64,000 bases of DNA from an uncultured Roseivirgaceae bacterium (GCA_964598395.1 CAZRBW010000003.1:27972-91971), one strand, 5' to 3'. Shown: positions 2,319-64,000, counted from the stretch's first letter. Numbers and translations are program-made. Notes: generated by a model from the letters alone, not told the origin.

Positions 2319-2325
2319 AATTTAC

Positions 2326-2995: not shown

Positions 2996-3021
2996 TTCAA
3001 GGCAATCTTGCATATTAGTTT

Positions 3022-6685: not shown

Positions 6686-6731
6686 TTCATTCTCAATTAG
6701 TTCTTTTTCCATCAGTTAGCGCACCCATTCA

Positions 6732-7259
6732 ATGAAGAAAATATATGTGGCATCCCGAAATCCTGTGAAAGTGGCTTGTACTCGAGCTGGATTTGAGCGG
6801 TGTTTTCCATATGTGATGTTTGATGTGGAAGGGGTGAATATTCCTTCTGGGGTACCTGACCAGCCAATGACTGATCAGGAAACTTACGATGGGGCAGTAA
6901 AGAGAGCTGAGCGAGCTAGAGAGGCTTTTCCTGATGGTGAATTTTGGGTTGGAATTGAAGGAGGGTTGGATCAAAAGAACGGTGCCATGGAAGCATTTGC
7001 CTGGGTGGTAATTATTGGCAAATTCAAATCTGGAAAATCTAGAACTTCCACCTTTTTTCTGCCGCCAGCCATAGTTGAGCTAGTATTGAAAGGCCATGAG
7101 CTAGGTGATGCTACCGATATTATTTTCAATAAAGACGGTACTAAAATGAAAAGTGGAGCAGTAGGGATGCTAACGCGCGATTTGCTTAACAGAACGGAAT
7201 ATTATGAGCAGGCTATTACACTTGCGTTAATTCCATTTATCAATCCACACCTTTTCTGA
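6732..7259 (+). CDS. yjjX: Inosine/xanthosine triphosphatase (YjjX family non-canonical purine NTPase)
   Basis: 175-aa ORF. The N-terminus VASRNPVKV..., SGVPDQP and FWVGIEGG parallel E. coli YjjX. Confidence 0.8.
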   Translation: MKKIYVASRNPVKVACTRAGFERCFPYVMFDVEGVNIPSGVPDQPMTDQETYDGAVKRAERAREAFPDGEFWVGIEGGLDQKNGAMEAFAWVVIIGKFKSGKSRTSTFFLPPAIVELVLKGHELGDATDIIFNKDGTKMKSGAVGMLTRDLLNRTEYYEQAITLALIPFINPHLF

Positions 7260-7263
7260 TTTA

Positions 7264-8271: not shown

Positions 8272-8305
8272 AGCAAATTAACAACGCTATCAATCTAAGA
8301 ATTTT

Positions 8306-9325
8306 ATGAGCTCGATATATTTTTTTTCTAAAACCCATCAATCAATGCAATCGCTAAGAAAATCAATCAGGAATATTTTGAATAAATCAAGTCTAATTTC
8401 CTTTCTATTGATTGTAGGTTTTATTGGATTATTATTTCCAATCGAATTAAGTGCTCAAAAAATTGACAGAGAGCAATTGCTCAAAGATATACAAATACTA
8501 TCTGCCGACGATATGGAAGGTCGCAAGGCTGGAACAGCGGGAGGAGAAAAAGCAAGACAATACTTGATTGAACGCTTTAGAGGCAATCATATTTTGTCCT
8601 ACGAGGGAGGTTACGAGCAACAGTTCAGCTTCAACACATTTCGTGCGAACGAGCGCTTTGATAATAATGTGAATTTGATTGGCTACATCGAAGGTGAGAT
8701 TGAGGACATTATAGTAGTATCTGCACATTATGACCACATAGGCTTTGCAGAAGATAAAATTTATAATGGCGCAGATGACAATGCTTCTGGTGTTTCAGCA
8801 ATGTTAGCAATTGCGGCTTACTTCAAGGAAAATAAGCCAAGGCATACCATAGTATTTGCGGCATTTGATGCGGAGGAGCAAGGTAAAAAAGGAGCGATAT
8901 ATTTCATATCCAAGCCACCCGAGCAATTGCGAAAAGGGCTAATCCGTCTCAACATCAATATGGATATGCTTTCGCAAAATGATAAAAACGAACTTTATGC
9001 GTCTGGTACATTTCACAATCCTTGGCTTAAGCCGATTTTAGAAGAAGTTGCGACTCCAGCAAATTTTACCTTACAATTTGGCCACGATAGGCCAGAGCAG
9101 GGTGCCGACGATTGGACAAATTCATCCGATCATGGCCCATTCCATAAGGAAGGTATTCCATTCATTTATTTTGGCGTGGAGGATCATGCCAATTACCACC
9201 AAGCGACGGATACTTTTGAAAATATCCATCCAGACTTTTACTATAATGCTGCATCATTTGTGTTGGATGCAATTATTCGTTTGGATAAAGTGGACTTGAT
9301 GACGGCACCATCCTCCCGCGATTAA
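8306..9325 (+). CDS. M28 family metallopeptidase (aminopeptidase)
   Basis: 339-aa ORF with a signal/TM segment and Zn-ligand motifs SAHYDH, DDNASG and DAEEQG. The start may be at an internal Met. Confidence 0.85.
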   Translation: MSSIYFFSKTHQSMQSLRKSIRNILNKSSLISFLLIVGFIGLLFPIELSAQKIDREQLLKDIQILSADDMEGRKAGTAGGEKARQYLIERFRGNHILSYEGGYEQQFSFNTFRANERFDNNVNLIGYIEGEIEDIIVVSAHYDHIGFAEDKIYNGADDNASGVSAMLAIAAYFKENKPRHTIVFAAFDAEEQGKKGAIYFISKPPEQLRKGLIRLNINMDMLSQNDKNELYASGTFHNPWLKPILEEVATPANFTLQFGHDRPEQGADDWTNSSDHGPFHKEGIPFIYFGVEDHANYHQATDTFENIHPDFYYNAASFVLDAIIRLDKVDLMTAPSSRD

Positions 9326-9326
9326 A

Positions 9327-9755
9327 CTACCTTGCAAATATCTGAGATGGATCTTGGAATGATTTGAACTCCAAGGCATTTCCGCTTGGGTCAAGAAAAA
9401 ACATTGTGGCTTGCTCACCAACTTCTCCTTTGAATCTGATATAAGGTTCAATTATGAAGTCTGTTCCAACTTCTTTCAGTTTGTCAGCTAAGATATGCCA
9501 TTGCTCCCAAGGCAAAACAGCGCCAAAGTGCCTTACAGGTACAGACTTAGCATCTACTTCGTTGGTTTTGGCATTGCTTAGTTCCTCTGGTTTCAGGTGA
9601 GCCGAAAGCTGATGGCCAAAGAAATTAAAGTCCACCCATTTGTCGGTAAATCGGCCCATTTCACAGCCAAGTAATTCTCCATAAAAGGTTTTAGTTGCTT
9701 CCAAATCGGCAACTGGAAAAGCAAGATGAAAAGGTGTATAATTTAAAGTGCTCAT
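9327..9755 (-). CDS. VOC (glyoxalase/bleomycin-resistance/dioxygenase) family protein
   Basis: 142-aa ORF with a VOC-type N-terminus ([17 protein letters not shown]). Confidence 0.8.
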
Positions 9756-9815
9756 TTTTGTAGATAATAAAGTAATTTAGAAATTGAGTTTCCAATACAA
9801 GCGCAAGTTGCTAAA

Positions 9816-10724
9816 ATGAATCAAGATTTAATAAATAAAAAAGTGGCATTGGTGCTGTCGAGTGGTGGTGCCCGTGGGGTTGCGCATATTGGTGTGATTG
9901 AAGCTTTAGAAGAATTGGGCTACGATATCCACGCCATTGCAGGTTGCTCTATAGGAGCGGTGGTTGGGGGAATTTATGCAGCAGGCAAATTACCAGAATT
10001 TAAAGAATGGCTTTGCAATTTAGATAAGGTCGACTTATTCAAGTTATTCGATTTCACTCTCAGCAGTCAGGGATTTGTGAAAGGCGAAAAGGTATTTAAG
10101 GAACTTAGAAATTTTATAGACGATTACGAAATTGAGGACTTGCGAATCCCATTCGTTTGTGTGGCAGTTGATATCCTCGGCGACGAGGAAGTGGTGTTCG
10201 ACAAAGGCAGTTTATTCGATGCCATGCGAGCATCTGCCGCGATTCCTTCCATTGTGACGCCAGTGCGTTTTGGAAATAGAATAATGGTAGACGGTGGAGT
10301 ATTAAATCCCATTCCGCTGAATCTTATCAAAAGAGTGAATGATGATGTGTTGGTTTGTGTGGATGTGAATGGTAAGGTGAAAGCTCAAAAAAATGTAAGT
10401 AAAAGGAAGCCTAAGGAAGAAAAAGAATATCAAAACAAGGTGGAGGAATTTGCCCAAAAACTGTGGGCCTTGTGGCCGAAAAGTCAAGAGGAAGAAGAAA
10501 AGAAATTTGGGATACTAGAATTGGTCACTAAGTCTTTGGACTTAATGCAGGATAAACTTTCAGATAATATTTTAGAAAAGCATCAGCCAGATATATTGGT
10601 AACGGTGCCTAGAAATACAGCGGGAACATTTGAATTTTACAAATCAGCTGAGTTGATAGACTTTGGTAAGAAATTATTTCTCAAAAACCACGAAGAATGG
10701 ATTCGAAGCAAGAAGGAAGCGTAA
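9816..10724 (+). CDS. Patatin-like phospholipase
   Basis: Has the GGxRG (SSGGARG), GxSxG (GCSIGA) and DGG motifs. Confidence 0.9.
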   Translation: MNQDLINKKVALVLSSGGARGVAHIGVIEALEELGYDIHAIAGCSIGAVVGGIYAAGKLPEFKEWLCNLDKVDLFKLFDFTLSSQGFVKGEKVFKELRNFIDDYEIEDLRIPFVCVAVDILGDEEVVFDKGSLFDAMRASAAIPSIVTPVRFGNRIMVDGGVLNPIPLNLIKRVNDDVLVCVDVNGKVKAQKNVSKRKPKEEKEYQNKVEEFAQKLWALWPKSQEEEEKKFGILELVTKSLDLMQDKLSDNILEKHQPDILVTVPRNTAGTFEFYKSAELIDFGKKLFLKNHEEWIRSKKEA

Positions 10725-11329
10725 GTCAGTTCAACCAAAGGCTAGGGAATATTGACATCTACTTGCTCGACCAAATCCTGAAAGGTCGATTTGTTGCTAG
10801 CATGAAAGTGCTAGATGCAGGTTGTGGAGAAGGCCGCAACTTAATTTGGTTTATGCAGCAGGGTTACGAAATCCACGCAATAGATCAGAATGAGAGTGCT
10901 TTGCAAATGCTCAAATACCAAATGCACAGTCTCCATAGGGAAGATTTGGTAGAGAATGTATATAAAATGGATCTTGCAGAAATGCTTTTTCCAGACAAGG
11001 CATTCAAAATAGTGATTTGCTCTGCAGTGCTTCATTTTGCAAATAATGAGCAGCATTTTGATGCCATGCTTAATGAACTCACTAGAGTAACGGCGGGAGG
11101 TGGTTATCTATTTATCAGAGCCACCACGACTAGAGGATTATCACCGGCTTCCTATCAAACTATTGGTAATGGCCGATTTTATTTGGCCGATGGCAGCGAG
11201 CGTTTTTTGATGACGGATGCACACATATCCAAACTACTAGCAATGGGTTGGGAAGCAGTAGAACCGATTAAATCTGTATTGGTAGAAGATTATCGAAGTA
11301 TGCTAGTGGCTATATTGCGAAGAAAGTAA
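10697..11329 (+). CDS. Class I SAM-dependent methyltransferase
   Basis: Motif I is VLDAGCGEGRN. 210 aa. Overlaps the patatin gene 3' end by 28 nt. Confidence 0.8.
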   Translation: MDSKQEGSVSQFNQRLGNIDIYLLDQILKGRFVASMKVLDAGCGEGRNLIWFMQQGYEIHAIDQNESALQMLKYQMHSLHREDLVENVYKMDLAEMLFPDKAFKIVICSAVLHFANNEQHFDAMLNELTRVTAGGGYLFIRATTTRGLSPASYQTIGNGRFYLADGSERFLMTDAHISKLLAMGWEAVEPIKSVLVEDYRSMLVAILRRK

Positions 11330-15636: not shown

Positions 15637-18087
15637 TCAGAAATCGAAGCTTAACCCTATCATGAAATTTCTACCTGCCATTGGGTAGTAGAAGTTTTCC
15701 TGCACCCGCTCACCGCCAGCTATATAGCCGAAAGTATATCCATTTGGCTCGTATTCTATATCAAATATATTGTTGAGCATAAAGGTAAATCGAGTGCTTT
15801 TGATGTGTTTGGAACGGATCAAATAATTGAAGCGTAGATTTTGGACAAAAAAGGCATCCAATTTTCGATTTTGGTTGGAAGTATTATCCAAAAATTGATC
15901 TCCTACATATTTATTAACTAATGCGATTTCCAAATCGCGGGAGGGTTGATAAGCTAATGTAGCTCCACCAATCCACTCTGGACTTAGCGCGATATTGGTG
16001 TTGCCATGAGCAATTTCTTGCTGACCTCCCGCATCATAATCGTCCACATATTCTACAAAGTCGATAATCCTGTTTTTGCTCCAGGCAAGGTTAGCTGCCA
16101 AAGTCCATTTGCTATTCAATTGGAAACTACCATCCAATTCGATACCTGCGCGGTAGCTATCATCTACATTGGTACGGTTGTATGCGCCTACGTCATTTAC
16201 TTGGCCTGTTATTACCAATTGATTTTTGTAGAGCATCAGAAAGTGATTTGCTGTGAAGCTGAATCGCTCATTTCTCCAACGAATACCTGCTTCCACATTT
16301 TGCATTGATTCTGCTTTTGGTCGACTATCTGGCGAAGATTCCGTAAGGTCGCGACGAACTGGCTCTCTGTTACCTACACTGTAGCTAGCATATAGCATAG
16401 TGTTGGCATTTGCTTCGAATGTTGCACCAGCTTTTGGATTGAAGAAAGCAAAATCCACATCCTGTGTAATATTAGTGAGATTGCGATCGAAACCTAAGAA
16501 TGTGTAATTGATGGTGCGCAATTGCAAATCGCCAAAGAGGTTCAACTTGTTAGTAAGCTGATAATTTGCTTTGGTAAATATGTTAAAATCCGTTTTGAGG
16601 CCATTGTTATCGTAATAGCGATCACCTGGTGTGATGGTATTTCCAAGGAATCTTCCCCACATTACCTCACCATAATGGTCTCCATCATATCTATTCCAAG
16701 CGCCACCTACGGTTACTTCTAGCTTATCGTCTGGACGATAAGTGCCACTGAAAGTGGTTCCGTAAAAGTGATTGTCCAGCCACCTGCGTCTCACTAGGTC
16801 GGTTCTACTTATTGTTTCGTCGCCAATGGTGATGGCAGGCAGATTGTAATTCGATAGTCGGTCATTAAATCGAAACTGCTCGAAATAGCCTCTGCCACGC
16901 GTGTAGTGTAGAGCCGCATTGAAAGTGAATTGAGGGTTTGCTTCCAACGCATAAATAAGCTGATAATGATCTTGCTGATAATTGTCAACTTGATTGTTGT
17001 ACTCATAGAAATTGTAGGTACGGCTATCGCTATTAAGCAAGTTTTGTTGCTGCTGCTCATTCAAGCCATTGCGATCAATATAGGCTAGCATTTCTTCACG
17101 ATTACCTCTAAGTCTCGATTCGGGAGTTCCTTCCCAAGCTTGGTAGGTTTCTTCAGCTCCTGAAAATACATTTAGCTTCAAAAGGCTTTTTTTGCCATGG
17201 TAGCCACCAGAAAGATAAAATGATTTCAAATCAGATCTAGCTCTATCAAGAAATCCATCTGACGAGATTCTTGACAATCGCGCATCGAAAGTGAATTTAT
17301 CGTTGATTAAGCCTGTGCCGACTCTCACAGTATTTTTCCAGCTATTGAATGAGCCTACCGAATTATCAATCTGAGCATAAGCCTCCTGATTGATTAGGTC
17401 GGTTTGGATATTGATTGATGCGCCAAATGCGGCAGCTCCATTTGTGGAAGTGCCTACCCCACGCTGTATTTGGATATTCTCCACTGAAGACGCAAAGTCG
17501 GGCATATTTACCCAAAATACTCCATGCGATTCAGAGTCATTGATTGGGATTCCATTTACCGTCACGTTTACTCTTGTGGCGTCGCTGCCTCGTATTCGCA
17601 GGCCTGTGTATCCAATACCCGCTCCCGCATCGGAATGGGTGACAATAGAGGGAGTTTGGTCTAGCAATATTGGGATATCTTGTCCCAAATTCTGCTTTTG
17701 AATTTCTTTTCTATTGACTGTGGTAAAGGTTGCAGGAGTCTTGTCAGAGGCTCTTGTGGCAAATACAATCACTTCTTGTCCAAGCAATTCGCTCTGTTCC
17801 AATTCGAAAGTAGGCCTTCCAGTTAGGTTGGCGGGTACATTCTGAATCAGCGTTTTGTAACCGACAAAGGAGATTTTGAGGGTGAAATCGCTTTCTGGAG
17901 CATTTGAAATAATGAAATTACCTTCTAAATCGGAAACTGCTCCAAATCGAGTTCCTTCAATAGTGATGTTGGCATTGGGTAATGCCAATTTAGTTTCCTT
18001 ATCGATTACCTTCCCTTCAAATGAAGTTTGGGCAAAGGAAACAACTGAGCCAAGGCAAATTGCCAGGCAGATAACGTACTTAAACAT
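15637..18087 (-). CDS. TonB-dependent receptor (candidate thiamine/thiamine-precursor outer-membrane transporter)
   Basis: Has a signal peptide (MFKYVICLAICLGSVVSFAQ), a CarboxypepD_reg-like N-domain, a plug, a long beta-barrel and a terminal ...LSFDF. The track ORF extends to 18111 (alternative ATG). A TPP riboswitch lies directly upstream. Confidence 0.9.
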   Translation of the reverse strand: MFKYVICLAICLGSVVSFAQTSFEGKVIDKETKLALPNANITIEGTRFGAVSDLEGNFIISNAPESDFTLKISFVGYKTLIQNVPANLTGRPTFELEQSELLGQEVIVFATRASDKTPATFTTVNRKEIQKQNLGQDIPILLDQTPSIVTHSDAGAGIGYTGLRIRGSDATRVNVTVNGIPINDSESHGVFWVNMPDFASSVENIQIQRGVGTSTNGAAAFGASINIQTDLINQEAYAQIDNSVGSFNSWKNTVRVGTGLINDKFTFDARLSRISSDGFLDRARSDLKSFYLSGGYHGKKSLLKLNVFSGAEETYQAWEGTPESRLRGNREEMLAYIDRNGLNEQQQQNLLNSDSRTYNFYEYNNQVDNYQQDHYQLIYALEANPQFTFNAALHYTRGRGYFEQFRFNDRLSNYNLPAITIGDETISRTDLVRRRWLDNHFYGTTFSGTYRPDDKLEVTVGGAWNRYDGDHYGEVMWGRFLGNTITPGDRYYDNNGLKTDFNIFTKANYQLTNKLNLFGDLQLRTINYTFLGFDRNLTNITQDVDFAFFNPKAGATFEANANTMLYASYSVGNREPVRRDLTESSPDSRPKAESMQNVEAGIRWRNERFSFTANHFLMLYKNQLVITGQVNDVGAYNRTNVDDSYRAGIELDGSFQLNSKWTLAANLAWSKNRIIDFVEYVDDYDAGGQQEIAHGNTNIALSPEWIGGATLAYQPSRDLEIALVNKYVGDQFLDNTSNQNRKLDAFFVQNLRFNYLIRSKHIKSTRFTFMLNNIFDIEYEPNGYTFGYIAGGERVQENFYYPMAGRNFMIGLSFDF

Positions 18088-18112
18088 GTTAGAAATTTTT
18101 AGGTGAAACATT

Positions 18113-18235
18113 GCGAAGCATCTAAGGGGCAGATGCTTCCTTTATTTGTTTTACCATACCTCCCTTCGACCGCATTACCGGCATCAGGTTCAATGGGTAT
18201 AATCTCAGCCCGAAATGTTAGGGCACCCCTTATTC
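18113..18235 (-). promoter_or_regulatory. TPP (THI-box) riboswitch with downstream hairpin
   Basis: The minus strand reads AGGGGTGCCC..GGCTGAGATTATACCCATTGAACCTGATGCCGGTAATGCGGTCGAAGGGAGG. This contains the conserved CUGAGA, ACCC, GAACCUGAU and GGUAAU elements of the THI element. A perfect 9-bp hairpin (GAAGCATCT/AGATGCTTC, 18115-18139) follows, just before the receptor start. Confidence 0.85.
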
Positions 18236-18240
18236 TGCTG

Positions 18241-18271
18241 CAAATGTACGCCTATTTGCTTTTAGTGCAAA
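18241..18271 (-). promoter_or_regulatory. Putative Bacteroidota-type promoter (-33 TTTG / -7 TAcaTTTG) for the riboswitch-receptor transcript
   Basis: The minus strand reads TTTGcactaaaagcaaataggcgTACATTTG, with 19-nt spacing, ending about 8 nt before the riboswitch. The -33 element lies inside the 3' end of the upstream ATPase gene. Confidence 0.4.
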
Positions 18272-18771
18272 TTTCCAATTACTTTTAAAGCACTTTCCAG
18301 TCTTTCGTTTTCTTTACCTTTAATGATTGTGTAAGGGAGCCTACGCTTTTTACACTCTTCCAGATAGATATTGAAGAAGTAATTTCTAAGTTCAGGATGT
18401 TCACGCTGAGGATCTTCCACCCAGGGTGTGTCGATGTACATCAAGAAGTAATGATCGTATGTTCGAGCTCTCAATTCTCTTTCGATCCAGCCTTCCACTT
18501 GTTTGAAACGGTGTAAGCTCCAGATTTTGATTACCGTAAGATCCGTATCACAGATCAAAAGCGGGGGGTTAGATTCTGCTAATTTATCTTCACTAGAAAT
18601 TTGCCCTTTGGCAATTTCAGATAAGTCGCTGTATTTATATTCTCTATTTAAGTTTTTAAGATATTCACGTGCAAATTCAGGTACTAATGGAAACGAAAGT
18701 TCATTTGAGAGTTGATTCGCAAGTGTGCTTTTGCCCGTAGATTCTGGGCCTATTATGGCAATTTTTTTCAT
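18262..18771 (-). CDS. AAA-type ATPase resembling the NadR C-terminal ribosylnicotinamide kinase domain
   Basis: P-loop GPESTGKST. 169 aa. Positioned immediately downstream of pnuC, as in pnuC-nadR pairs. Confidence 0.7.
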   Translation of the reverse strand: MKKIAIIGPESTGKSTLANQLSNELSFPLVPEFAREYLKNLNREYKYSDLSEIAKGQISSEDKLAESNPPLLICDTDLTVIKIWSLHRFKQVEGWIERELRARTYDHYFLMYIDTPWVEDPQREHPELRNYFFNIYLEECKKRRLPYTIIKGKENERLESALKVIGNLH

Positions 18772-18776
18772 ATATT

Positions 18777-19385
18777 CTATTTGACACTAAGTTCTCGACG
18801 CCATCGGGTGTAACCCAATATGGCAAGGATTAAAAAAATTATAAATTGAAAGGAAGTTAATATTAGTCCCTTATGGAAGTACAACGGAATAGAAAGCAAA
18901 TTAGTGAAAATCCAGGCGATCCAATTTTCCAATTTCTTTTTTGCCATCAATAACATAGCCACAAAAGCCATGGAGGTGGTAAGTGCATCCCAATAGGGCA
19001 CATCGCTATCAGTGAAGTTGATTAATGCATAGGTAATTATTGCAAAAGAACCAATGAGTGTTGCAATACTTATGGCCCACTCTTTTGGGCTATTGGTGGT
19101 GATTGGCAAGAAGTTATTGTTCAAATCCTTTCTTGACCAAAGGTACCAGCCGTAAATGCTCATGATAAAATAATAGGCATTAATACCAACATCTGCATAT
19201 AGTTTGGCACCAAAGCAAATATATACGTAAATCAATACGCTAATGATCCCTGTTGGGAAAACGAGTATATTTTCAAGTCTAGAATACCAAACACTAAGTA
19301 ATCCAAAAAATACTGCTGTGGCCTCAAGTAAGGTAATTTGTTTAACACCCTCCCGCAATCCGTCCCAGATTACATTTACTTCCAT
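18777..19385 (-). CDS. pnuC: PnuC-family (nicotinamide riboside / vitamin) transporter
   Basis: 202-aa polytopic membrane protein with Trp-rich helices typical of the Pnu family. Substrate (NR versus thiamine) cannot be decided from sequence alone. Confidence 0.8.
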   Translation of the reverse strand: MEVNVIWDGLREGVKQITLLEATAVFFGLLSVWYSRLENILVFPTGIISVLIYVYICFGAKLYADVGINAYYFIMSIYGWYLWSRKDLNNNFLPITTNSPKEWAISIATLIGSFAIITYALINFTDSDVPYWDALTTSMAFVAMLLMAKKKLENWIAWIFTNLLSIPLYFHKGLILTSFQFIIFLILAILGYTRWRRELSVK

Positions 19386-19730
19386 GCCGCAAAAATAGTG
19401 TAATGTTTAATCGGATTGCTAATTAGATTGAATTTTAGATAAGTTTAGAAAAATGCGCCATTCAAATCAATATTTCACTTTTTAATATAAAGCCTAGAAA
19501 AAAGTAATTCTAAATAGCTAAATTGTACCTCGTTTAAATGGAATGACTCGTGCCAATTTGTATTAAGAAAAAGCATCCCAATAGGGTAAGGATCTAGTCA
19601 ATGCAACCTGTATGCAGTTTATTCTGTTTTTCTGTTCAAAATCAAAACATTATTAAGGGTTTAAGAGATTATTAATTAAGTTTGGAGTCTCTTTTGCTTT
19701 ATCGCAATTATTAACTGGTATAACGGAGAA

Positions 19731-21056
19731 ATGAAAATGAAAAAAGTATTAGCAATTGTAGCGTTTTTTGTTGTGGGGATTTTTTCTACTCCACTTTTTG
19801 CGCAAGGCGGTTTCAACTGGCCTCCAGATGAAACATTAGCGCAGTCGGCGAAGGAAAAGTATGTACTGCATACAGATTCTAGAAAAATGGGTGATTACAA
19901 AACTGCTCATTCAACTTTAGTGTGGTTGTTGAAAAATACACCAGAATTAAGTGAGTCTTTATATATCTCTGGTCATAGAGTATTTGAAGAAATGGCTGAT
20001 GTTGAAGAAAGCGAAACTAGGAAGTATGAACTCCAAGATTCCGCTTTGATGCTTTATGACTTAAGAACAAAGTACTACGGAAATGAAGCAAATATTTTAA
20101 ATAGAAAGCTTATTCCTGCATATAAGTACCTTGCAAATAGGACTGATAAACTACAAGAATTGGTAAACGACTATACAAGGTTGTTTGAAATAGCTCCTGT
20201 AGGAGAAATCAATGATTTCCATATGTTGACGTATATTGATGCTGTTCGTCGTAATCAGAAAAACAATGGAGGGTCGTTGACTGATCCTGAAATCATGGCC
20301 ATTTACGATAAAGTAATGTCTGTGTACGAAGAGAAAATTCAGGATGCTAAGAATAAGGCGCAGCTTGAGGACATGAAAGGTCAGATTGATGGTGTTCTTG
20401 CAGATATGGTTACAATTGATTGTAAATTCATTGATGGTCAATTAGGCGATAAACTGAGAGCAAATCCAACTGACTTGGAAATGGCTAAAAAGATATTCAG
20501 CTATTCAATTACAGCTTCTTGTACTGATACTGATATATTCACTCAGGCAGCAAAAGTTTATTATGCAAGCGAACCACAATTGGCAGTTGCTAAAGTATTA
20601 GCATCAAGAGCTATTAGAGAAGAAAACTATGATGAAGGCTTGAAATACCTTAATGATGCTATCAAAATGTCTGAAGACAATGCTGAACAAGGTGAGTTAA
20701 CTATGCGAATTGCTGATATTGCATCTTTCAGAAACGAAAAAGGCAAAGCAAGAGAATTATATTTGAAGGCTGTGCAGATTGATCCTTCTTTGAAAGAAGC
20801 ATATTCTAAAATAGGCGATTTGATCTTGGGCAGCTACGATCAGTGTAAGCAAGAAAAAAGCAGAGTTGATGACAGAGCTATATTTATTGCGGCTTACGAT
20901 TATTACGTAAGAGGTGGCAATGGTCAAAGAGCTGCTCAAATGAAACAACAGTTCCCTACTGCTGAAATGATCTTTACTGAGGGCAAATCAGTAGGTGATG
21001 AAGTGAGAGTAGGATGTTGGATTGGAATGACTGTTAAGATTCAGAAAGCTGATTAA
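19731..21056 (+). CDS. Hypothetical secreted TPR-like protein
   Basis: 441-aa ORF with a signal peptide (…TPLFAQ) and a helical-repeat composition. I recognise no family. Confidence 0.6.
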   Translation: MKMKKVLAIVAFFVVGIFSTPLFAQGGFNWPPDETLAQSAKEKYVLHTDSRKMGDYKTAHSTLVWLLKNTPELSESLYISGHRVFEEMADVEESETRKYELQDSALMLYDLRTKYYGNEANILNRKLIPAYKYLANRTDKLQELVNDYTRLFEIAPVGEINDFHMLTYIDAVRRNQKNNGGSLTDPEIMAIYDKVMSVYEEKIQDAKNKAQLEDMKGQIDGVLADMVTIDCKFIDGQLGDKLRANPTDLEMAKKIFSYSITASCTDTDIFTQAAKVYYASEPQLAVAKVLASRAIREENYDEGLKYLNDAIKMSEDNAEQGELTMRIADIASFRNEKGKARELYLKAVQIDPSLKEAYSKIGDLILGSYDQCKQEKSRVDDRAIFIAAYDYYVRGGNGQRAAQMKQQFPTAEMIFTEGKSVGDEVRVGCWIGMTVKIQKAD

Positions 21057-54665: not shown

Positions 54666-56984
<2,319 letters not shown>

Positions 56985-57656
56985 TTAGTCTTAAATATTT
57001 CAACAAGACTTAGATTTTTTTAAAATACTGTTTTCTTATTCGATGTTAAAATCAATTTTAAGATTGCTTTAACTCTTCTAAAGTTCTTAAATCTAATGCA
57101 TTGATCTCAACCGAAAATGTAATAATCTTGAAAAAAGAGGTTTTTTATATTGATCAAATGATTTTAAAACTAGGCTGATCTTTGGCAGACAAAGTGGTTT
57201 TAATTTTCCTTTTAGAATAATGTGTCTCTATATTTAGTTTCAAGCCTTCAAGCTGATTCCTCAAGCCAAATTTAATTGTGTCGAATGAGCTATAAGCAGA
57301 TGTCTTGATAAGCCTTCTCTTAATTTAGTTCATGAGCAAATTGTATAACCTAAATTCACCTATTTTTCAATTTTTTTTACACGCAAATAATTTCTGTCTT
57401 TTAATCAGTGCTTTATGGTTTTTCTCTTTTCCTCCATTATTCAATATTAAAATTTTATATACAAGCAGGGGTTTAGCTTCATTGGTTTATAAAAAGATTA
57501 TTAACATAAGATTCTGTTAAACAGTTAATTAGCAATTTAATATTTCCATTAGGAAGGTTTTGTTAATATAATGTATGTATAAGATTGAGGATAATTATGC
57601 CTAGATTTTAAAATCATTTCAGACAAATGCAGTCAAATTTCAAAAATAAATACCCT

Positions 57657-60600
57657 ATGAAACGATTAACCTTACTGCTTTTTACCCTCTTGATTTCCAC
57701 CTCTATATACAGCCAATCTGGTCGAGTGGTAATTGATGAAAATAGGGAAGGTATGAAGCTGCTTGTGAATGGAGAACCATTTATGGTAAATGGCATGAAC
57801 TGGGATTATTTCCCAATCGGTACCAACTTTTCCTATAGCTTATGGAATCAGCCAGATGACTTTATAATGAAGGCGCTGGATGATGAAATGTCCCTGCTGA
57901 AAAATATGGGTGTAAATACGATTAGAGTTTACACGGGTATTCAGAGAAAATGGATTCAGTATATATATGAAAAGCATGGTATTTACACGATGTTAAATCA
58001 CTCATTTGGTAGATACGGACTTACTTTAAATGGCACATGGGCACCTAATACCGATTATGCTGATCCAAGAGTAAGAGAGGTGTTGTTGCGGGAGGTTACT
58101 GAAATGGTACAGGAGTTTAGAGGCACACCTGGCCTGCTATTGTATCTGCTAGGTAATGAAAACAACTACGGATTGTTTTGGGATGGAGCAGAAACTGAAG
58201 ATATACCTGTAGAGGATAGACAATCAACCATCAGAGCAGAATCAATGTACAAGCTTTTCAATGAAGCTACACTTGCTATGAAAGCGGTGGATTCGTCAAA
58301 TCCAATCGCTATATGTAATGGTGATCTACTCTTTTTAGATCTGATTGCTGAAGAATGTAAAGACATAGATATACTTGGTATTAACGTTTACCGTGGCATT
58401 TCATTTACTGATATGTTTGATAGAGTGAAGAATGAGTTTGGTAAACCTGTACTTCTTACTGAATTTGGTAGTGATGCTTTCAATGCGCTCACAAATGAAG
58501 AAGATCAACAATCTCAAGCAATTTATAATCTTGCCAACTGGAAAGAAATATATGAAAATGCAGCCGGTTTAGGTAAAGCTGGAAATTCGCTTGGTGGTTT
58601 CACATTTCAATTTAGTGATGGCTGGTGGAAATATGGCCAGACAACAAATTTAAGTGTACATGACAACAATGCTTCATGGTCGAATGGAGGGTATCAATTC
58701 GACTATGTTGAGGGCGAAAATAATATGAATGAAGAGTGGTTTGGGATTGCTGCTAAAGGACCAACCAACGCAATGGGCTTTTATCAACTTTATCCCCGTA
58801 CTGCTTATTATGTATTGAAAGAAGCCCATCAGGTTAATCCTTATTCAAGTGGAACTTCGTTAGCTTCCATTCAAAGAGACTTCGCGCAAATTAAAATCAC
58901 TGATGCATTTTTAAGAGCTAGAGGAGATAAGGCTGCACTTCAAGGAGATCAATTAAGTAAAATCAGTTTGAGCAGACTTAGTGCTCAATTTTCCACATTC
59001 AATACGGGAGGTAGTTTAATCACGACACCAAGTTCAGCGATCCCTGGAAGCAATGATTTTCCAAACCAATTGGGCTTCGACCACATGCAATCATTTTTTG
59101 TAGGTGTGCAGGCCAATCCAGCTCCTGAGTTTAGAGCCAATGTTGAATTCAATATTTTGGGCAATGTAGCTCGCAACCCAATAGATCAGATTTTCTACGA
59201 AAATAGAGGAAGGCCAGTAGAAGTTCGATCACCCAATGGCACCATTGAATTGCAGTCTGAAAATAGAGTTCAAGTATATCAGGCGAGCTATGAATGGAAT
59301 CATAAAATGTTCAATTTGAATGGATTCTATCGTACAGGTCATTACCATTGGGGCTACGAAGGAGATTTCTTCGGTCTCTATCCAGAAGCGAACTATGGCC
59401 CAATGATCGATATATATAATGGTATGGCACCATTTGGTATTGAGATGGAAGGGAAGAAACAATTAAAAGATTTTAAACTAGCATTCGGGCCAGAATTGTG
59501 GTGGGGAGCTAACCCAGCCTTTTTGTTAAAGTACAGAAAGGAACTAGGTAAGAGCACTACAGTAACTGGTATTTTCCATGAGGATTTACAGCAACGAGGT
59601 CTTTCAGAAAGTTCCTTTGCTATTCCTCAGCCGAAAACGAGAAGACTGAGTGTTCACTTGAATCAAGACCTTGGAAAATTTGGAATTGATCTTGGAGGTG
59701 TATGGGGTGGCCAACCTTTGCAGGGAAGGGTATTCCAAGCAGTGAGAGAGGAAAGTACTGGTATGGCAATTTATCAAGACCAAATCAGAGCTAAGGATAA
59801 CTTCGGCGGAAAAGCGAAATTAACTTACGAGGGAGGGAAATTCAATTGGTATGCACAATCGGCTGCTATGGGATTAGTTGCTCAAGGTGGCGCCGACCAA
59901 ACATTAACATTCACAGGCTGGAGACTAAAGGATAGCGGAAGTGGCAATCAATACAATTTCCTCTCTGGATTTACTTACAATGTAGGCAACCTTCAAATTG
60001 CGCCTAATTTCCTTTGGCAAAAGCCACTTGAAGGGCCGATTCCAACTACTATAGGAGGTGCGGCTCGCCCAAGAAATATTCTCGACGACCCATTCGTAGT
60101 TAGAAGTAATAGAGAACAAACAGCAGGAGAAATATTATTCACTTTTGACAAAACACCAGGCACTTACATGTACGATTGGGATAGTGACAGGACGGAAGAT
60201 TCTGAATTAGCTTTCAGTCTAGGTTTTGTATTTCGACACTTGCCAACAATCCAAGATGCTGCCATAGGTATCTTACCGGATGGACGTACCTTATTTGCTT
60301 TTCCAGGCTCCGCTCCAGCGCAAGACTTATGGGAAGTGAATGCAAGAGTAGTTTCTAAACTGAGTAAGGATTTTGGATGGATTGCAAACATGTATATAGG
60401 GGATGCGCAAGCTAATGGTAGCGATGCACGTACCATCCAAAGACAAGGAATGGATTTGAGAATGATCTATAAAACGGTAAAGCTTAATTCATTCGTAAGA
60501 ATAAACGACTGGGGGCCATATGATTACCACCGAGATTTCAACCTTACTTTCCCTTCGCAATTTATGACAGATATTTCGGTAGCACTTGGCAAGCCAGATT

Positions 60601-60794
60601 GGTTCGACATGCCAGATACTCGTATTGGTCTGAGAGGTACTTACCGTACACTTGATAGATTTTCGCCTCGCTATAACCCAACTCAAACAATTGATGGCGC
60701 TGGCAATATGGTTCCTGATCCTACAGCTATTGGCTTTGGCAATGGTAATGAATGGGAAATCAGGACTTACATTTTCATTAACATCGTTAAATAA
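57657..60794 (+). CDS. Secreted clan GH-A (TIM-barrel, GH2-like) glycoside-hydrolase-like protein fused to a ~610-aa C-terminal region of unknown family
   Basis: Starts at MKRLTLLLFTLLISTSIYSQ (signal peptide); the track ORF starts 30 nt earlier. It has GNE-type acid/base (LLGNENNYG) and TEFG-type nucleophile (VLLTEFGSDAF) motifs spaced as in (beta/alpha)8 hydrolases. The C-terminal half has no motif I recognise. Confidence 0.7.
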   Translation: MKRLTLLLFTLLISTSIYSQSGRVVIDENREGMKLLVNGEPFMVNGMNWDYFPIGTNFSYSLWNQPDDFIMKALDDEMSLLKNMGVNTIRVYTGIQRKWIQYIYEKHGIYTMLNHSFGRYGLTLNGTWAPNTDYADPRVREVLLREVTEMVQEFRGTPGLLLYLLGNENNYGLFWDGAETEDIPVEDRQSTIRAESMYKLFNEATLAMKAVDSSNPIAICNGDLLFLDLIAEECKDIDILGINVYRGISFTDMFDRVKNEFGKPVLLTEFGSDAFNALTNEEDQQSQAIYNLANWKEIYENAAGLGKAGNSLGGFTFQFSDGWWKYGQTTNLSVHDNNASWSNGGYQFDYVEGENNMNEEWFGIAAKGPTNAMGFYQLYPRTAYYVLKEAHQVNPYSSGTSLASIQRDFAQIKITDAFLRARGDKAALQGDQLSKISLSRLSAQFSTFNTGGSLITTPSSAIPGSNDFPNQLGFDHMQSFFVGVQANPAPEFRANVEFNILGNVARNPIDQIFYENRGRPVEVRSPNGTIELQSENRVQVYQASYEWNHKMFNLNGFYRTGHYHWGYEGDFFGLYPEANYGPMIDIYNGMAPFGIEMEGKKQLKDFKLAFGPELWWGANPAFLLKYRKELGKSTTVTGIFHEDLQQRGLSESSFAIPQPKTRRLSVHLNQDLGKFGIDLGGVWGGQPLQGRVFQAVREESTGMAIYQDQIRAKDNFGGKAKLTYEGGKFNWYAQSAAMGLVAQGGADQTLTFTGWRLKDSGSGNQYNFLSGFTYNVGNLQIAPNFLWQKPLEGPIPTTIGGAARPRNILDDPFVVRSNREQTAGEILFTFDKTPGTYMYDWDSDRTEDSELAFSLGFVFRHLPTIQDAAIGILPDGRTLFAFPGSAPAQDLWEVNARVVSKLSKDFGWIANMYIGDAQANGSDARTIQRQGMDLRMIYKTVKLNSFVRINDWGPYDYHRDFNLTFPSQFMTDISVALGKPDWFDMPDTRIGLRGTYRTLDRFSPRYNPTQTIDGAGNMVPDPTAIGFGNGNEWEIRTYIFINIVK

Positions 60795-60805: not shown

Positions 60806-63800
60806 ATGAGAACTTATAATAAAAATAACTGGAGGAGGGATTTTTCCATTTGTCTGCTTCTGGCACTTTCTCTTGGTTGCATTAGAGATATAGATGAGCT
60901 GGAGCCAGCCACATTCTCTACCAATCCAGCGGTATTTTTGGATGGCTTTAGTGCAGGCTTAAATTATGCAGCCTTTGGTGGATCAGTACCCACTGCATTT
61001 AACGTGGATACAGAGGTAACTTTCACTACTACATCCCAAGCTTCCATGCGATTTGAAGTGCCCGATGCAAATGACCCGAGAGGAGCATATGCGGGAGGTA
61101 CATTCTTTACCGATGTGCCAAGAGATTTATCTGAATATGACGCGCTTACTTTCTGGGCAAAAGCTAGTAAGGCAGCGACCATAGATGTAGTCGGTTTTGG
61201 CAATGATTTGGGTGAATCAAAATATCAAGTCGCACTAAATGGAATGGCCGTTAATACCAATTGGCAGAAATACTACATTCCAATCCCGGATCCAGCCAAA
61301 TTATCGGCTGAAAGAGGAATGTTTTATTATAGTGAAGGACCCGAAGAGGGTAGAGGCTATACCTTTTGGATTGATGATTTGAAATTTGAAAAGCTGGGCA
61401 CAATTTCTCAGCCACAACACAGTATTATTAGTGGTAATACTCAAGTTGAAACTTCATTTATTGGTGCAAATAGAAGGATAGATGGCTTACAATCATCATT
61501 TAATTTACCTAATGGTATAAACCAGATACTAAACATTGCTCCAAGCTATTTTGTATTCTCATCTTCCAACGAATCAATTGCTTCAGTAGATGCTGCAGGA
61601 AATGTTTCGGTAGTGGGTGGACCTGGGAATGCCATAATTTCTGCCACTTTGGGCAGTGTTCAAACTAGAGGTTCTTTGACTATTCAATCTATTGGCCAAT
61701 TCGTTGCTGCGCCAGTTCCAACTCACCCAGCAGATAGAGTAATCTCACTTTTCAGTGAAGCTTATACTAATGTGCCAGTAGATTTTTTTAATGGATATTG
61801 GGAGCCTTTCCAGACTACATTGTCTGCAGATTTCGAAGTCCAAGGAAATCGAATTTTGAATTACTTTAATTTCAATTTTGTAGGCATTCAATTTAGCTCA
61901 CCCACTATTAATGCAACTGATATGACTCACTTGCATGTGGATATTTTCATACCTAATGCGTTGAGTGGAAATGCCCGCTTAACTCTTGAAATGGTAGATA
62001 ATTTAGTGGAACCAGCAGGTATATTTACAACAAATATTCAGGCATCCCAATCTCAAGAATGGATAAGTCTGGATATCCCGCTTTCTAATTTTGCAGGACT
62101 TAAAAGCAGAGCAAATCTCTATCAATTAATCTTTGTGGATGCATCTGGAAATATCCCAGGCTTCTATGCAGATAATATTTATTTCTACAAAGCTGAAGTT
62201 CCTCCTGCTGTTTTATCGGAGCCAGCTCCTACACCAACGAGGAACGCGGCAGGTGTGATATCCATGTTTAGTGATGCTTATCCAAATGTTACGGTGGATA
62301 CTTGGAGAACAGATTGGTCCTCAGCAATCTTAGAAGATATCTCCATTCAAGGAGATGCAATTAAGAAGTATTCAGCACTTGATTTCGTAGGAATTGAAAC
62401 AGTAAGCAATCAAATCAATATCGAGAACATGACGCATCTTCACGTAGATGTATGGTCACCAAACTTCACTAATTTTGGAATTAAGTTAGTTGATTTTGGC
62501 CCTGATGGTGGATTTGCGGGAGGTGATGATACAGAGCATCAAGTGGATTTTGCTGGATTACCAACAGGCGAATGGGTGAGTTTGGATATTCCTTTAAGTA
62601 ATTTCACAGGGTTGACTACTAGAAAGAATTTAGCTCAAATGATATTGGTTTCTCAGCCATCCGGTGGTGCCATTGTTCATATTGATAATATGTATTTCTA
62701 TGATGAAAATGCTGCAACTACTCCTGTTGGGTTAACTGTACCGGCACCAACACCAACAAGACCTGCTTCTGGTGTGATATCCATGTTTAGCGATGCCTAC
62801 CCTAACGTAACAGTTGATACCTGGCGTACAGATTGGTCGTCGGCTGTATTAGAAGATATCTTGGTGCAAGGCAATGCTGTCAAAAAGTATTCTTCTTTAG
62901 ATTTTGTGGGTATTGAAACCGTAAGCAATCAAATCAATATCGAGAATATGACGCACATGCACATGGATGTGTGGTCTGCTGATTTCACCAATTTCGCGAT
63001 TAAGTTGGTGGACTTTGGCCCTGATGGAGGCTTTGGTGGAGGTGATGATACGGAGCATCAAATTAATTTTGCCACCCCAGCACAAGGTCGTTGGGTAAGT
63101 TTGGATATTCCTTTGAGCAACTTCACAAACCTAACCACCCGCAAAAATTTGGCTCAAATGATTCTCGTTGGTCAACCTTCTGGTGCTACCATTGTGCATA
63201 TCGACAATGTTTATTTTTACGATGCAAATGCAGGAAATGGATCAACAGGATTATCAACACCAGCACCTGCCCCAACCCAGCCAGCAGCTGATGTAATATC
63301 AATGTTTAGCGATAGTTACACTAATGTAACTGTAAATACCTGGCGAACAGACTGGTCATCCGCTACATTAGAAGAGTTATCTATACAAGGTAATGCAGTT
63401 AAAAAATACTCCTCATTAGATTTTGTGGGTATTGAGACTGTGAGTAACCAAATAAACATTGAGGAAATGACGCATTTCCGGATGGATGTATGGTCTGCCG
63501 ATTTCACCAGCTTTGGGATAAAGCTGGTTGATTTTGGTCCTGATGGCAGCTTTGGTGGAGGTGATGATACAGAGCATCAAGTAAATGTTGCCACACCTGC
63601 AAAGAGCCGTTGGGTAAGCTTAGATATACCATTGAGTAGTTTCGCAGGCCTAACCACCCGCAAGAATTTGGCTCAAATGATTCTTGTGGCACAGCCATCT
63701 GGTGCAGCAACTGTTTATGTTGACAACGTCTTTTTCTACAAAACCAGTGGAAATGGAGGAGGCGGATCTCAAACTGGTACAGCCATATTTGAGGAATCAT

Positions 63801-64000
63801 TCTCTCAAGCAACATCTATCAATACCTGGGAAAAAATTGCAGATGCTAATAGCAATGAAGCTACTATCCAGTGGCTGGCAACTGGTGGAGTAGAAGGTGG
63901 TGCCATGCGAGTGTCGGGTAGTAATCCAAACACAGCCGCTGGCAAAGCCTATATTTTCCAAACCCAAAAGAGTGGGCTTAATTTTGGTGGAAAAACCAAA
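60806..64000 (+). CDS. Very large surface lipoprotein (partial; continues past the window end) with a Big_2-like domain and four CBM-like modules
   Basis: ATG at 60806, with an open frame of 1065 codons to the window end and no stop, which is why it is absent from the ORF track. It has a lipobox LSLGC and a Big_2-like segment (SSNESIASVDAAGNVSVVGGPGNAIISATLG). The repeated ~172-aa modules begin ...VISMFSDAYPNVTVDTWRTDWS... and end ...IDNMYFYD. Confidence 0.8.
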   Translation, partial: MRTYNKNNWRRDFSICLLLALSLGCIRDIDELEPATFSTNPAVFLDGFSAGLNYAAFGGSVPTAFNVDTEVTFTTTSQASMRFEVPDANDPRGAYAGGTFFTDVPRDLSEYDALTFWAKASKAATIDVVGFGNDLGESKYQVALNGMAVNTNWQKYYIPIPDPAKLSAERGMFYYSEGPEEGRGYTFWIDDLKFEKLGTISQPQHSIISGNTQVETSFIGANRRIDGLQSSFNLPNGINQILNIAPSYFVFSSSNESIASVDAAGNVSVVGGPGNAIISATLGSVQTRGSLTIQSIGQFVAAPVPTHPADRVISLFSEAYTNVPVDFFNGYWEPFQTTLSADFEVQGNRILNYFNFNFVGIQFSSPTINATDMTHLHVDIFIPNALSGNARLTLEMVDNLVEPAGIFTTNIQASQSQEWISLDIPLSNFAGLKSRANLYQLIFVDASGNIPGFYADNIYFYKAEVPPAVLSEPAPTPTRNAAGVISMFSDAYPNVTVDTWRTDWSSAILEDISIQGDAIKKYSALDFVGIETVSNQINIENMTHLHVDVWSPNFTNFGIKLVDFGPDGGFAGGDDTEHQVDFAGLPTGEWVSLDIPLSNFTGLTTRKNLAQMILVSQPSGGAIVHIDNMYFYDENAATTPVGLTVPAPTPTRPASGVISMFSDAYPNVTVDTWRTDWSSAVLEDILVQGNAVKKYSSLDFVGIETVSNQINIENMTHMHMDVWSADFTNFAIKLVDFGPDGGFGGGDDTEHQINFATPAQGRWVSLDIPLSNFTNLTTRKNLAQMILVGQPSGATIVHIDNVYFYDANAGNGSTGLSTPAPAPTQPAADVISMFSDSYTNVTVNTWRTDWSSATLEELSIQGNAVKKYSSLDFVGIETVSNQINIEEMTHFRMDVWSADFTSFGIKLVDFGPDGSFGGGDDTEHQVNVATPAKSRWVSLDIPLSSFAGLTTRKNLAQMILVAQPSGAATVYVDNVFFYKTSGNGGGGSQTGTAIFEESFSQATSINTWEKIADANSNEATIQWLATGGVEGGAMRVSGSNPNTAAGKAYIFQTQKSGLNFGGKTK
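61709..63778 (+). repeat. In-frame tandem coding repeats: three 519-bp units plus one diverged ~513-bp unit
   Basis: Units start at about 62222, 62741 and 63260. The anchor GGTGTGATATCCATGTTTAG recurs at 62252, 62771 and (as GATGTAATATCAATGTTTAG) 63290, an exact 519-nt period. An older, diverged copy lies at 61709-62221. Confidence 0.9.

Follow-up and report, generated by a model that had tools for sequence, protein, structure and literature searches.

Which protein carries laminarin across the outer membrane when the locus that degrades it holds no SusC/SusD pair? Laminarin is among the ocean's largest organic-carbon fluxes, and its uptake by Bacteroidota has been described almost wholly via SusC/SusD. 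The question is raised by a stretch of 64,000 nucleotides from an uncultured Roseivirgaceae bacterium (GCA_964598395.1 CAZRBW010000003.1:27972-91971; this whole stretch is referred to below as the window), in which a gene at positions 57657-60794 heads a laminarin operon and encodes a glycoside hydrolase (GH) fused to a predicted outer-membrane barrel. An earlier interpretation made from the DNA alone (the sequence-only reading) had seen neither SusC nor SusD there, and we likewise found no SusC/SusD genes within the window; the genome from which it derives (3.1 Mb, 99.8% complete) holds no SusD genes beyond two that lie on a different contig. The central claim of that reading, a hydrolase covalently joined to an outer-membrane barrel, is supported by structure prediction and by alignment with GH158 enzymes. 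We conclude that the protein represents a real, widespread and apparently undescribed family of enzyme-barrel fusions, and that the fusion most likely gives a SusC/D-independent outer-membrane route for laminarin. Its probable function is that of a TonB-independent laminari-oligosaccharide channel with a tethered periplasmic glucanase, a transport role that we infer for the outer-membrane component of a SusC/SusD-less laminarin (beta-1,3/1,6-glucan) operon.

The gene, the parts of its product and the neighboring partner gene are located as follows.

57657..60794, plus strand: whole gene, GH158-like glucanase plus predicted outer-membrane barrel (open frame, 1045 amino acids, aa)
57657..57716, plus strand: type-I signal peptide without lipobox, residues 1-20, MKRLTLLLFTLLISTSIYSQ (read off the sequence)
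57717..58856, plus strand: GH158-like catalytic domain with the (beta/alpha)8 fold of clan GH-A, residues ~21-400 (Pfam GH2_C, Foldseek and PDB profile matches)
58155..58160, plus strand: codons of N167-E168, predicted acid/base pair in a GNE motif (invariant in 38 homologs; aligned with the GNE of BuGH158)
58461..58463, plus strand: codon of E269, predicted nucleophile in a TEFG motif (invariant; aligned with the TE of BuGH158 and GH158(Pro))
58611..58745, plus strand: family-specific near-invariant insert, residues 319-363, FSDGWWKYGQ...NNMNEEWFG (run of invariant columns)
58860..58955, plus strand: helices that end the GH module and link it to the barrel, residues 402-433 (DSSP helices H402-410 and H414-433)
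58962..60791, plus strand: predicted outer-membrane beta-barrel with ~26 strands, from an undescribed family, residues 436-1045 (AlphaFold2, Foldseek, amphipathic strands)
59331..59432, plus strand: most conserved barrel loop, residues 559-592, RTGHYHWGYEGDFFGLYPEANYG... (mean conservation 0.78; 12 positions at >=90%, in fused and free barrels of several phyla)
59496..59516, plus strand: conserved short loop LWWGANP, residues 614-620 (mean conservation 0.85)
60150..60209, plus strand: conserved loop of 20 residues, predicted to face the periplasm, residues 832-851, KTPGTYMYDWDSDRTEDSEL (seven positions at >=90%)
60806..64000, plus strand, with the gene running to window-equivalent 64276: partner surface lipoprotein, 1156 aa (lipobox LSLGC, then acidic IRDIDE)

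The frame at 57657-60794 is open, as previously reported, and its translation of 1045 aa contains no internal stop. A longer frame from 57627 is possible; the start at 57657 is preferred on account of the start positions of homologs and the signal peptide MKRLTLLLFTLLISTSIYSQ, in which Q20 is invariant in the homolog alignment. Behind this type-I signal peptide the protein consists, in order, of a clan GH-A triose-phosphate isomerase (TIM) barrel, a helical stretch and a C-terminal region of ~610 aa.

Sequence searches place the N-terminal half in clan GH-A. Pfam returned weak clan GH-A matches only, within residues 34-292 (the best to the GH2_C TIM barrel, E 9e-7, 28.7 bits, residues 34-280, with GH_cc and GH53 besides) and none in residues ~430-1045, and searches of NCBIfam and PDB sequences gave marginal matches to beta-galactosidase TIM barrels only (PDB E ~0.006-0.1). 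When a profile built from 38 homologs was compared with all PDB sequences, GH158 alone was matched (6pal, BuGH158, E 4.8e-4; 9oro, GH158(Pro), E 7e-3), the GH2 beta-galactosidases trailing at E >=0.1; sequence identity to GH158 members is ~14%. The full-length AlphaFold2 (AF2) model agrees with this assignment, as its Foldseek search ranks GH158 structures on top (E 4e-13 to 1e-10; 9p26, 6pal, 9p25 and 9oro at 4e-13 to 8e-12, of which 9p26 and 6pal at 4e-13 to 3e-12), before GH2 glucuronidases. In that model the TIM barrel is well modelled despite an overall predicted local distance difference test (pLDDT) score of 63, and residues 319-362 of the family-specific insert fall below 50. The clan GH-A hallmarks recognised in the sequence-only reading agree with the weak Pfam matches and with GH158 as nearest fold.

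The two catalytic motifs named there are also in place, with N167-E168 in YLLGNENNYG and E269 in PVLLTEFGSDAF. All three residues are invariant across the 38 homologs, and in 6pal_A and 9oro_A they fall on the motifs GNE and TE, so that the glutamates, whose alignment with a GH-A family had been proposed as a check, do find their counterparts in GH158. In GH158 the Asn-Glu pair follows strand 4 and the nucleophile follows strand 7; the counterparts in BuGH158 are N136, E137 and E220, mutation of any of them abolishing activity (PMC7157763). The N-terminal jelly-roll and Ig-like domains of the GH2 architecture are absent from the window protein, its TIM barrel beginning at about residue 24, right behind the signal peptide, and so is the C-terminal Ig-like domain of the BuGH158 type, in whose stead the AF2 models show the helices 402-433 and then a transmembrane-type barrel. 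The N-terminal domain is best described as a predicted GH158-like glucanase with intact catalytic residues, and the laminarin-locus context suggests activity on beta-1,3-glucan.

The remaining ~610 residues had been said to match nothing, and this was found to hold: Pfam, NCBIfam and a phmmer search of PDB sequences gave no match to residues ~430-1045, Pfam gave none when 27 barrel sequences were searched one by one, and a profile built from these 27 barrels matched no PDB sequence. The TonB-dependent transporter (TBDT) models Plug and TonB_dep_Rec, as well as CarbopepD_reg, had no match at E <=1 either in the window protein or in the 27 barrel sequences. We modelled residues 430-1045 from an alignment of 66 diverse sequences, stand-alone forms among them, with identities as low as 23%. 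The AF2 model (mean pLDDT 82.8, predicted template modelling score 0.83) has 26 long antiparallel strands in hairpins, and the full-length run independently gave the same 26 strands. A Foldseek search of the barrel against PDB produced 339 matches at E<1e-3; all 50 of the 50 matches listed are outer-membrane barrels, with no soluble fold among them, and they include BtuB and other TBDTs, chitoporin, OprD/Occ, AlgE, the FimD and PapC ushers, MOMP and MtrB. Template modelling (TM) scores among the matches listed range from 0.23 to 0.39, MtrB being highest (0.39) and BtuB reaching 0.33-0.36. The alternation of hydrophobic residues to which the sequence-only reading had drawn attention is visible in the alignment-averaged odd/even hydropathy contrast, which is 2.0 in predicted strands vs 0.72 in loops. 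Where that reading had asked for a decision between a closed barrel and soluble sandwiches, one closed transmembrane-type barrel is predicted, and not Ig, CBM or GH2 C-terminal domains (CBM, carbohydrate-binding module). No solved structure comes close to the transmembrane-type barrel modelled for the C-terminal region.

On one side of the predicted barrel 10 of the 12 connections are 2-6 residues long, and loops on the opposite side reach 34 residues. Since the number of strands is even, both termini of the barrel should lie on the short-turn, periplasmic side. The C-terminus is F or Y, resembling the beta-signal of outer-membrane proteins, in free barrels and in several distant fused forms (P0259). 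Conservation concentrates in the loops 559-592, 614-620, 739-764, 791-820 and 832-851, the last of which departs from the otherwise 2-6-residue periplasmic turns. In the 66-sequence alignment, H, W, G, D, E, D, A and P are invariant within loop 559-592 (HYHWGYEGDFFGL...), which is a candidate pore constriction or sugar-binding loop. Loop-centred conservation is the pattern expected where loops shape a specific pore.

The partner gene starts at 60806, 11 nt past the stop of the fusion gene, and the view that a multi-CBM lipoprotein follows at this distance and forms a two-gene unit with the fusion proved sound, as in 77 of 81 loci the gene next after the fusion encodes a homologous lipoprotein. 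The lipoprotein consists of a conserved N-module, an Ig-like domain, a CBM-like module and then lineage-specific CBM-like repeats of 519 bp; its Pfam matches, to Big_2 and CBM_11, are weak. Partner homologs share the ~200-aa N-module (43-86% identity), the Ig-like domain and the first CBM-like module, and the minimal partner in other genomes (~470 aa) has just these three parts. The three further repeat units and the C-terminal module of the window partner are a lineage-specific extension, the C-terminal module recurring in 3 of 81 related loci. Within the partner gene (L084 3778-7248) the ~519-bp tandem units are 73-76% identical in DNA and have no match among PDB sequences; they may correspond to the laminarin-binding 'CBMxx' modules of a recent preprint (10.1101/2023.09.07.556657). 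Within the 99-nt gap past the lipoprotein gene there is a strong terminator-like hairpin of 10-11 bp, GC-containing and followed by a T-run (L084 7257-7281, window-equivalent 64285-64309), just outside the window, which suggests that barrel and lipoprotein may be transcribed as a unit of their own, or as an attenuated one, ahead of GH16.

The operon headed by the fusion gene is co-oriented; its structural genes lie 0-99 nt apart, a spacer of 243 nt precedes the regulator, and the genes are the following.

1, plus strand: GH-barrel fusion, operon head, with type-I signal peptide
2, plus strand: 1156-aa lipoprotein with CBM-like modules, next after the fusion
3: GH16, lipoprotein (C-EVDD after the lipobox)
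4: GH149 beta-1,3-oligoglucan phosphorylase, without signal peptide (1657 bits to PDB 6hq6)
5: GH17, lipoprotein
6: GH30, lipoprotein
7: MFS_2 transporter of the major facilitator superfamily (MFS), inner membrane
8: second GH17, without signal peptide
9: 896-aa propeller/Y_Y_Y/LuxR regulator, BguR-like, with a transmembrane segment

Co-localised, co-oriented enzymes, a sugar importer and a regulator, by which laminarin loci are recognised, are all present here. Acidic residues stand right behind the lipobox cysteine in the CBM lipoprotein (C-IRDIDE) and in GH16 (C-EVDD) and not in GH17 or GH30, which for the former two is consistent with the Bacteroidota surface-export signal. The sorting signals thus provide for each compartment, and no product of the locus other than the barrel is a candidate for passage across the outer membrane. 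The 896-aa regulator (L084 17200-19890) combines a propeller/Y_Y_Y sensor, set between a signal or transmembrane segment and a further transmembrane segment, with a coiled coil and a LuxR helix-turn-helix, and it lacks kinase domains; judged by its sequence, this layout matches that of the membrane-spanning one-component regulator BguR, a type described for laminarin polysaccharide utilisation loci (PULs; preprint 10.64898/2026.01.10.698779). In Flavobacterium loci the regulator homolog sits directly upstream of the fusion gene instead. The MFS and second GH17 genes (L084 14562-16956) are adjacent and separate, with a gap of 49 nt; L123 has at 8617-10968 a 783-aa open reading frame that is apparently an MFS-GH17 fusion, as in Formosa sp. 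Hel1_33_131.

More than 5000 homologs of the fusion protein are present in a metagenomic protein collection, 70-76% identical across orders and of near-constant length (~1044 aa), and relatives were confirmed at at least 591 species-representative stretches (591 of 600 pattern-matched). In order to determine whether the genomic neighborhood is conserved, we fetched 80 related loci from Bacteroidales, Flavobacteriales, Chitinophagales, Saprospirales, Cytophagales and Balneolales, and compared them by tblastn with the window's own locus proteins. GH16 was matched in 73 of the 80 loci, GH149 in 56, GH17 in 52, GH30 in 47 and MFS in 37; many of the misses are loci ended by contig edges, and gene order is mostly as in the window. 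A SusC/SusD pair within 10 kb was found in just 2 of 82 fused loci, compared with 5-6 of 34 barrel-less GH149 loci among the SusC matches listed (p 0.008-0.02).

An even sample of 401 high-quality Bacteroidota genomes contains the barrel in 42 genomes and 24 of 180 genera, or about 10% of the sampled species. There is one barrel locus per genome and, where the contig is intact, the barrel is always part of an open frame of ~1045-1124 aa. GH149 occurs in 75 of the 401 genomes and in 41 of the 42 that carry the barrel (Fisher p 5e-34). In a few genomes a single in-frame stop interrupts the fusion gene (G022, G183, G372) or GH149 (G011, G218, G274); these may be pseudogenes or sequencing errors. 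Beyond Bacteroidota, the family extends to several other diderm phyla, with members in Balneolales, Gammaproteobacteria, Cloacimonadota and Desulfuromonadaceae.

The two modules of the fusion are also found apart. An exhaustive search with the barrel only yielded 490 cluster representatives, including stand-alone barrels of ~570-615 aa with their own signal peptides. These stand-alone forms belong to marine Gammaproteobacteria, in whose loci LacI and an SBP_bac_5 oligosaccharide ATP-binding cassette (ABC) transporter accompany the barrel, followed by GH16 or by a protein of no known kind. This is the architecture of the GH149 clusters named "type I", whose describers remarked on the absence of an outer-membrane transporter gene (PMC5827456). 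Free GH modules, on the other hand, lie beside GH149 in 7 of the 34 GH149-positive, barrel-negative genomes. They are 410-475 aa long, are 60-67% identical to fusion residues 1-~425, and all stop within ~10 residues of the helix position 402-433. Three of the seven have a type-I signal like that of the fusion, which implies a periplasmic location, and four have a lipobox. Two of the seven loci (L093 and L124) include SusC/D, in the arrangement SusC-SusD-GH16-GH-GH149. The free GH proteins of L123 and L124 retain a helix-type C-terminal stretch (...LQARRDKGALE) matching residues 402-433; as the helix is kept in at least two barrel-less GH proteins, it is part of the GH module and not a pore-threading linker. 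As a genuine "Rosetta stone", the fusion ties the barrel family to a beta-1,3-glucanase. In a group of related genomes of one genus, g104 (L099, L102, L104, L108-L110, L117, L122), clusters of GH149, GH17, MFS and GH17b have no barrel, free GH158-like gene or SusC/D within 20 kb; G355, another g104 species, carries the fusion.

Fused forms outside Bacteroidota adjoin GH16, GH30, MFS and a GH149-sized gene, and in one case Entner-Doudoroff genes. Each of them is followed by a lipoprotein of ~207 aa from a different family, of which P0406 (L087 12003-12629) and P0407 (L088 12120-12743) are 36% identical to each other and have no Pfam match. We considered these lipoproteins as possible homologs of the N-module of the Bacteroidota partner and ruled this out (E 0.53). 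In L087 the fused barrel gene is preceded at 1-8985 by the gene of a giant GH16 and CBM4_9 protein, over 4171 aa in length, and the locus passes without a break into the genes of glucose-6-phosphate dehydrogenase, Edd, Eda and 6-phosphogluconolactonase at 16076-20608, making up a laminarin-to-Entner-Doudoroff cluster.

On its other side the fusion gene is bordered by a 720-bp spacer, as follows.

56937..57656, no strand assigned: AT-rich intergenic spacer between the divergent katG and fusion genes, presumed promoter region (open reading frame map)

A scan for the sigma-70 consensus gave 51 sites vs 57.8 expected by chance, and no promoter was assigned. The gene across the spacer, divergent from the laminarin locus at 54666-56936 on the minus strand, is katG (catalase-peroxidase, two peroxidase domains); in Peijinzhouia sedimentorum (L083) katG is absent from the corresponding position.

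From these observations the following mechanism can be proposed. After Sec export, the C-terminal ~610 residues would insert in the outer membrane as the predicted, plug-less ~26-strand barrel. As judged from this topology, with both termini periplasmic, the GH158-like endo-beta-1,3-glucanase would hang at the channel exit in the periplasm. At the surface, the CBM-like partner lipoprotein and the GH16 lipoprotein, going by their sorting signals, may capture and cut laminarin, and the oligosaccharides may then traverse the barrel without TonB energy, with the conserved inward-facing loops probably giving specificity. The tethered glucanase might, more speculatively, cut the emerging chains, preventing back-diffusion and making uptake directional. 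Family functions and signals further suggest that the products are shortened in the periplasm by the GH17 and GH30 lipoproteins, that MFS imports them, and that the cytoplasmic GH149 phosphorylase and second GH17 complete the breakdown. Of the two functions suggested in the sequence-only reading, glycan capture and import without SusC/D fits the catabolic laminarin operon conserved in 80 loci, with transport still a matter of prediction; export and trimming of an exopolysaccharide (EPS) is not supported, as the locus has no glycosyltransferase, polymerase or Wza/Wzx-type gene. We also put forward, tentatively and with rather less assurance than the channel function itself, that fusion and partner constitute a previously unrecognised class of glycan translocon, in which the tethered periplasmic endo-glucanase rather than proton-motive force makes uptake one-way (a hydrolytic ratchet), and which replaces SusC/SusD for laminarin in about one in ten Bacteroidota species and occurs also in Balneolales, Gammaproteobacteria, Cloacimonadota and Desulfuromonadaceae.

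Several observations weigh against the channel interpretation. The contrast between barrel and SusC/D is partial: 27 of the 34 barrel-less GH149 loci have no free GH or barrel, and SusC/D is near only 5-6 of the 34. A clean either/or of barrel and SusC/D around GH149 thus holds only in part, most barrel-less GH149 loci having neither. One distant relative carries a CBM4_9 ahead of its GH, which fits an enzyme meeting the polymer at the cell surface, and the fact that four of the seven free GH forms are lipoproteins fits a surface-acting enzyme too. The window protein ends in the non-aromatic ...INIVK, and its Bacteroidota relatives in ...INIVK or ...INIGK. The full-length AF2 model is poor (pLDDT 63) and leaves the GH unplaced relative to the barrel. 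Finally, a plug-less 26-strand barrel would need its own loops to close the pore.

These surface-pointing observations would agree with an autotransporter-like protein whose barrel exports and anchors its own glucanase at the surface, uptake being left to other porins or transporters. The order of N-terminal enzyme, helix and C-terminal barrel is that of classical autotransporters, and the solved gut Bacteroides GH158 enzymes are predicted to be at the cell surface (PMC7157763). We nevertheless regard self-display as unlikely, since the predicted barrel has ~26 strands and not 12, autotransporter Pfam models do not match it, passenger-less free barrels occur in catabolic loci, at least two free GH proteins retain the helix without having a barrel to thread, and a periplasmic location is expected of those free GH forms that carry type-I signals; moreover, a locus that already has a surface GH16 would then be without an outer-membrane uptake component. 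A pore for secretion or assembly, of the two-partner-secretion (TPS) or LptD/LptE type, that exports the partner lipoprotein or GH16 or holds it at the surface appears very unlikely. A lipoprotein gene does follow the barrel gene nearly everywhere, with the different ~207-aa family in that place in the non-Bacteroidota fused loci, the free barrel gene of Gammaproteobacteria is followed directly by GH16, and LptD and MtrB, the latter with the top TM-score, are likewise ~26-strand barrels enclosing a partner protein. Against such a pore, Pfam finds no POTRA or TPS domains, and Bacteroidota surface lipoproteins, including many surface glycan-binding proteins and GH16s, reach the surface without locus-specific barrels. 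The best-conserved residues are, in addition, common to barrels with unrelated partner families, which suggests a common ligand such as glucan and not a common protein partner.

That the barrel is instead an EPS export porin with a trimming hydrolase, like AlgE/AlgL, PgaA/PgaB or BcsC/BcsZ, is scarcely credible to us, even though EPS systems pair a periplasmic hydrolase with an outer-membrane barrel and AlgE is among the structural matches. The conserved neighbors are all catabolic or importers (GH16, GH149, GH17, GH30, MFS or ABC importers, a LacI or BguR-type regulator and, once, Entner-Doudoroff genes), and the loci examined contain no synthase, glycosyltransferase, tetratricopeptide repeat scaffold or Wza/Wzx gene. 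We give next to no weight to the remaining possibility, a C-terminal half that is no membrane barrel but a series of soluble beta-sandwiches (Ig, CBM or accessory domains of the GH2 type). It would agree with the database annotation of homologs as GH2-type glycosidases, and GH2 enzymes are indeed ~1000 aa long with beta-sandwich domains. However, two independent AF2 runs agree on 26 long hairpin-connected strands, the listed Foldseek matches contain no soluble fold, Ig, CBM and GH2 accessory Pfam models have no match in the region, and nothing stands between signal peptide and TIM barrel, where GH2 enzymes have their N-terminal domains. A TonB-independent channel with a tethered glucanase accordingly remains our preferred reading of the fusion.

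Homologs of the fusion have been seen before under other names. Papers on the Muricauda laminarin locus call its first enzyme gene a "GH2 beta-glycosidase" and leave SusC or an outer-membrane component unmentioned, marine studies count "GH158" among the laminarin PUL enzymes, and the GH149 paper speaks of Bacteroidetes "CAZyme clusters lacking susCD" (PMC5827456; CAZyme, carbohydrate-active enzyme). The literature and databases name the homologs "GH2" or "GH158", with the ~600 residues of the barrel unmentioned, and in open-access papers and preprints we found no description of a GH-barrel fusion or of a TonB-independent laminarin channel. If the barrel is an import channel, the susCD-less CAZyme clusters and the gammaproteobacterial "type I" GH149 clusters gain their missing outer-membrane component, and PUL prediction based on SusC/D pairs misses a common laminarin system. 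A new barrel family and a new principle of enzyme-channel coupling could then also be investigated in strains of Flavobacterium, Algoriphagus, Chryseobacterium and Muricauda that grow in culture.

Among known systems, SusC/SusD offers a parallel in gene arrangement, namely an outer-membrane barrel gene followed by the gene of a glycan-binding surface lipoprotein at the head of a glycan operon, and in two of the seven free-GH loci SusC/SusD is found near the GH module where fused loci have the barrel. The components themselves differ: the window barrel has no plug domain, TonB box or TBDT Pfam signature and ~26 predicted strands vs the 22 of SusC, its partner is made of beta-sandwich CBM-like and Big_2 modules and is not an alpha-helical SusD, and the two systems have no sequence similarity. 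The atypical PUL chu_1276-1280 of Cytophaga hutchinsonii (PMC12016534) was weighed as a possible relative; as its substrate is cellulose and CHU_1276 is described as TBDT-like, it is not relied on here. The TonB-independent sugar porins (LamB/ScrY, ChiP 7VU2, CymA, OprB) resemble the proposed passive, substrate-specific oligosaccharide channel in function and in their catabolic loci, and chitoporin ChiP 7VU2 is among the best structural matches to the window barrel; unlike it, these porins have 14-18 strands and no fused enzyme, and a sequence relationship is undetectable. LptD and MtrB share with the barrel the 26-strand size class and a partner protein, MtrB having the highest TM-score (0.39), whereas they differ in function (lipopolysaccharide insertion and electron conduit, respectively), have no sequence similarity to it and show low structural similarity. 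Type Va autotransporters such as the esterase EstA have the same order of N-terminal enzyme, helix and C-terminal outer-membrane barrel, but theirs is a 12-strand barrel with a Pfam family of its own, and the window family includes free barrels and keeps the helix in barrel-less GH proteins.

For the enzyme, GH158 (BuGH158, 6PAL; GH158(Pro), 9ORO/9P25/9P26) is both the best structural and the sole sequence-profile match, sharing the clan GH-A TIM barrel, the aligned N-E acid/base pair and E nucleophile, and a place beside GH16 in beta-1,3-glucan utilisation loci. The window protein differs in being only ~14% identical, with a profile E of just 5e-4, in lacking the C-terminal Ig-like domain, and in having, where GH158 enzymes have a lipoprotein signal, a type-I signal together with the invariant insert 319-363 and the fused ~610-aa barrel. 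As a fusion of transporter and beta-1,3-glucanase within a laminarin locus, it has a counterpart in the MFS-GH17 protein of Formosa sp. Hel1_33_131, which Unfried et al. 2018 called the first transporter-CAZyme fusion (PMC6246565) and to which the apparent fusion in L123 corresponds. That protein belongs to the inner membrane, whereas the window fusion is predicted at the outer membrane, draws on another GH family, and stands in a locus where MFS and GH17 are encoded separately.

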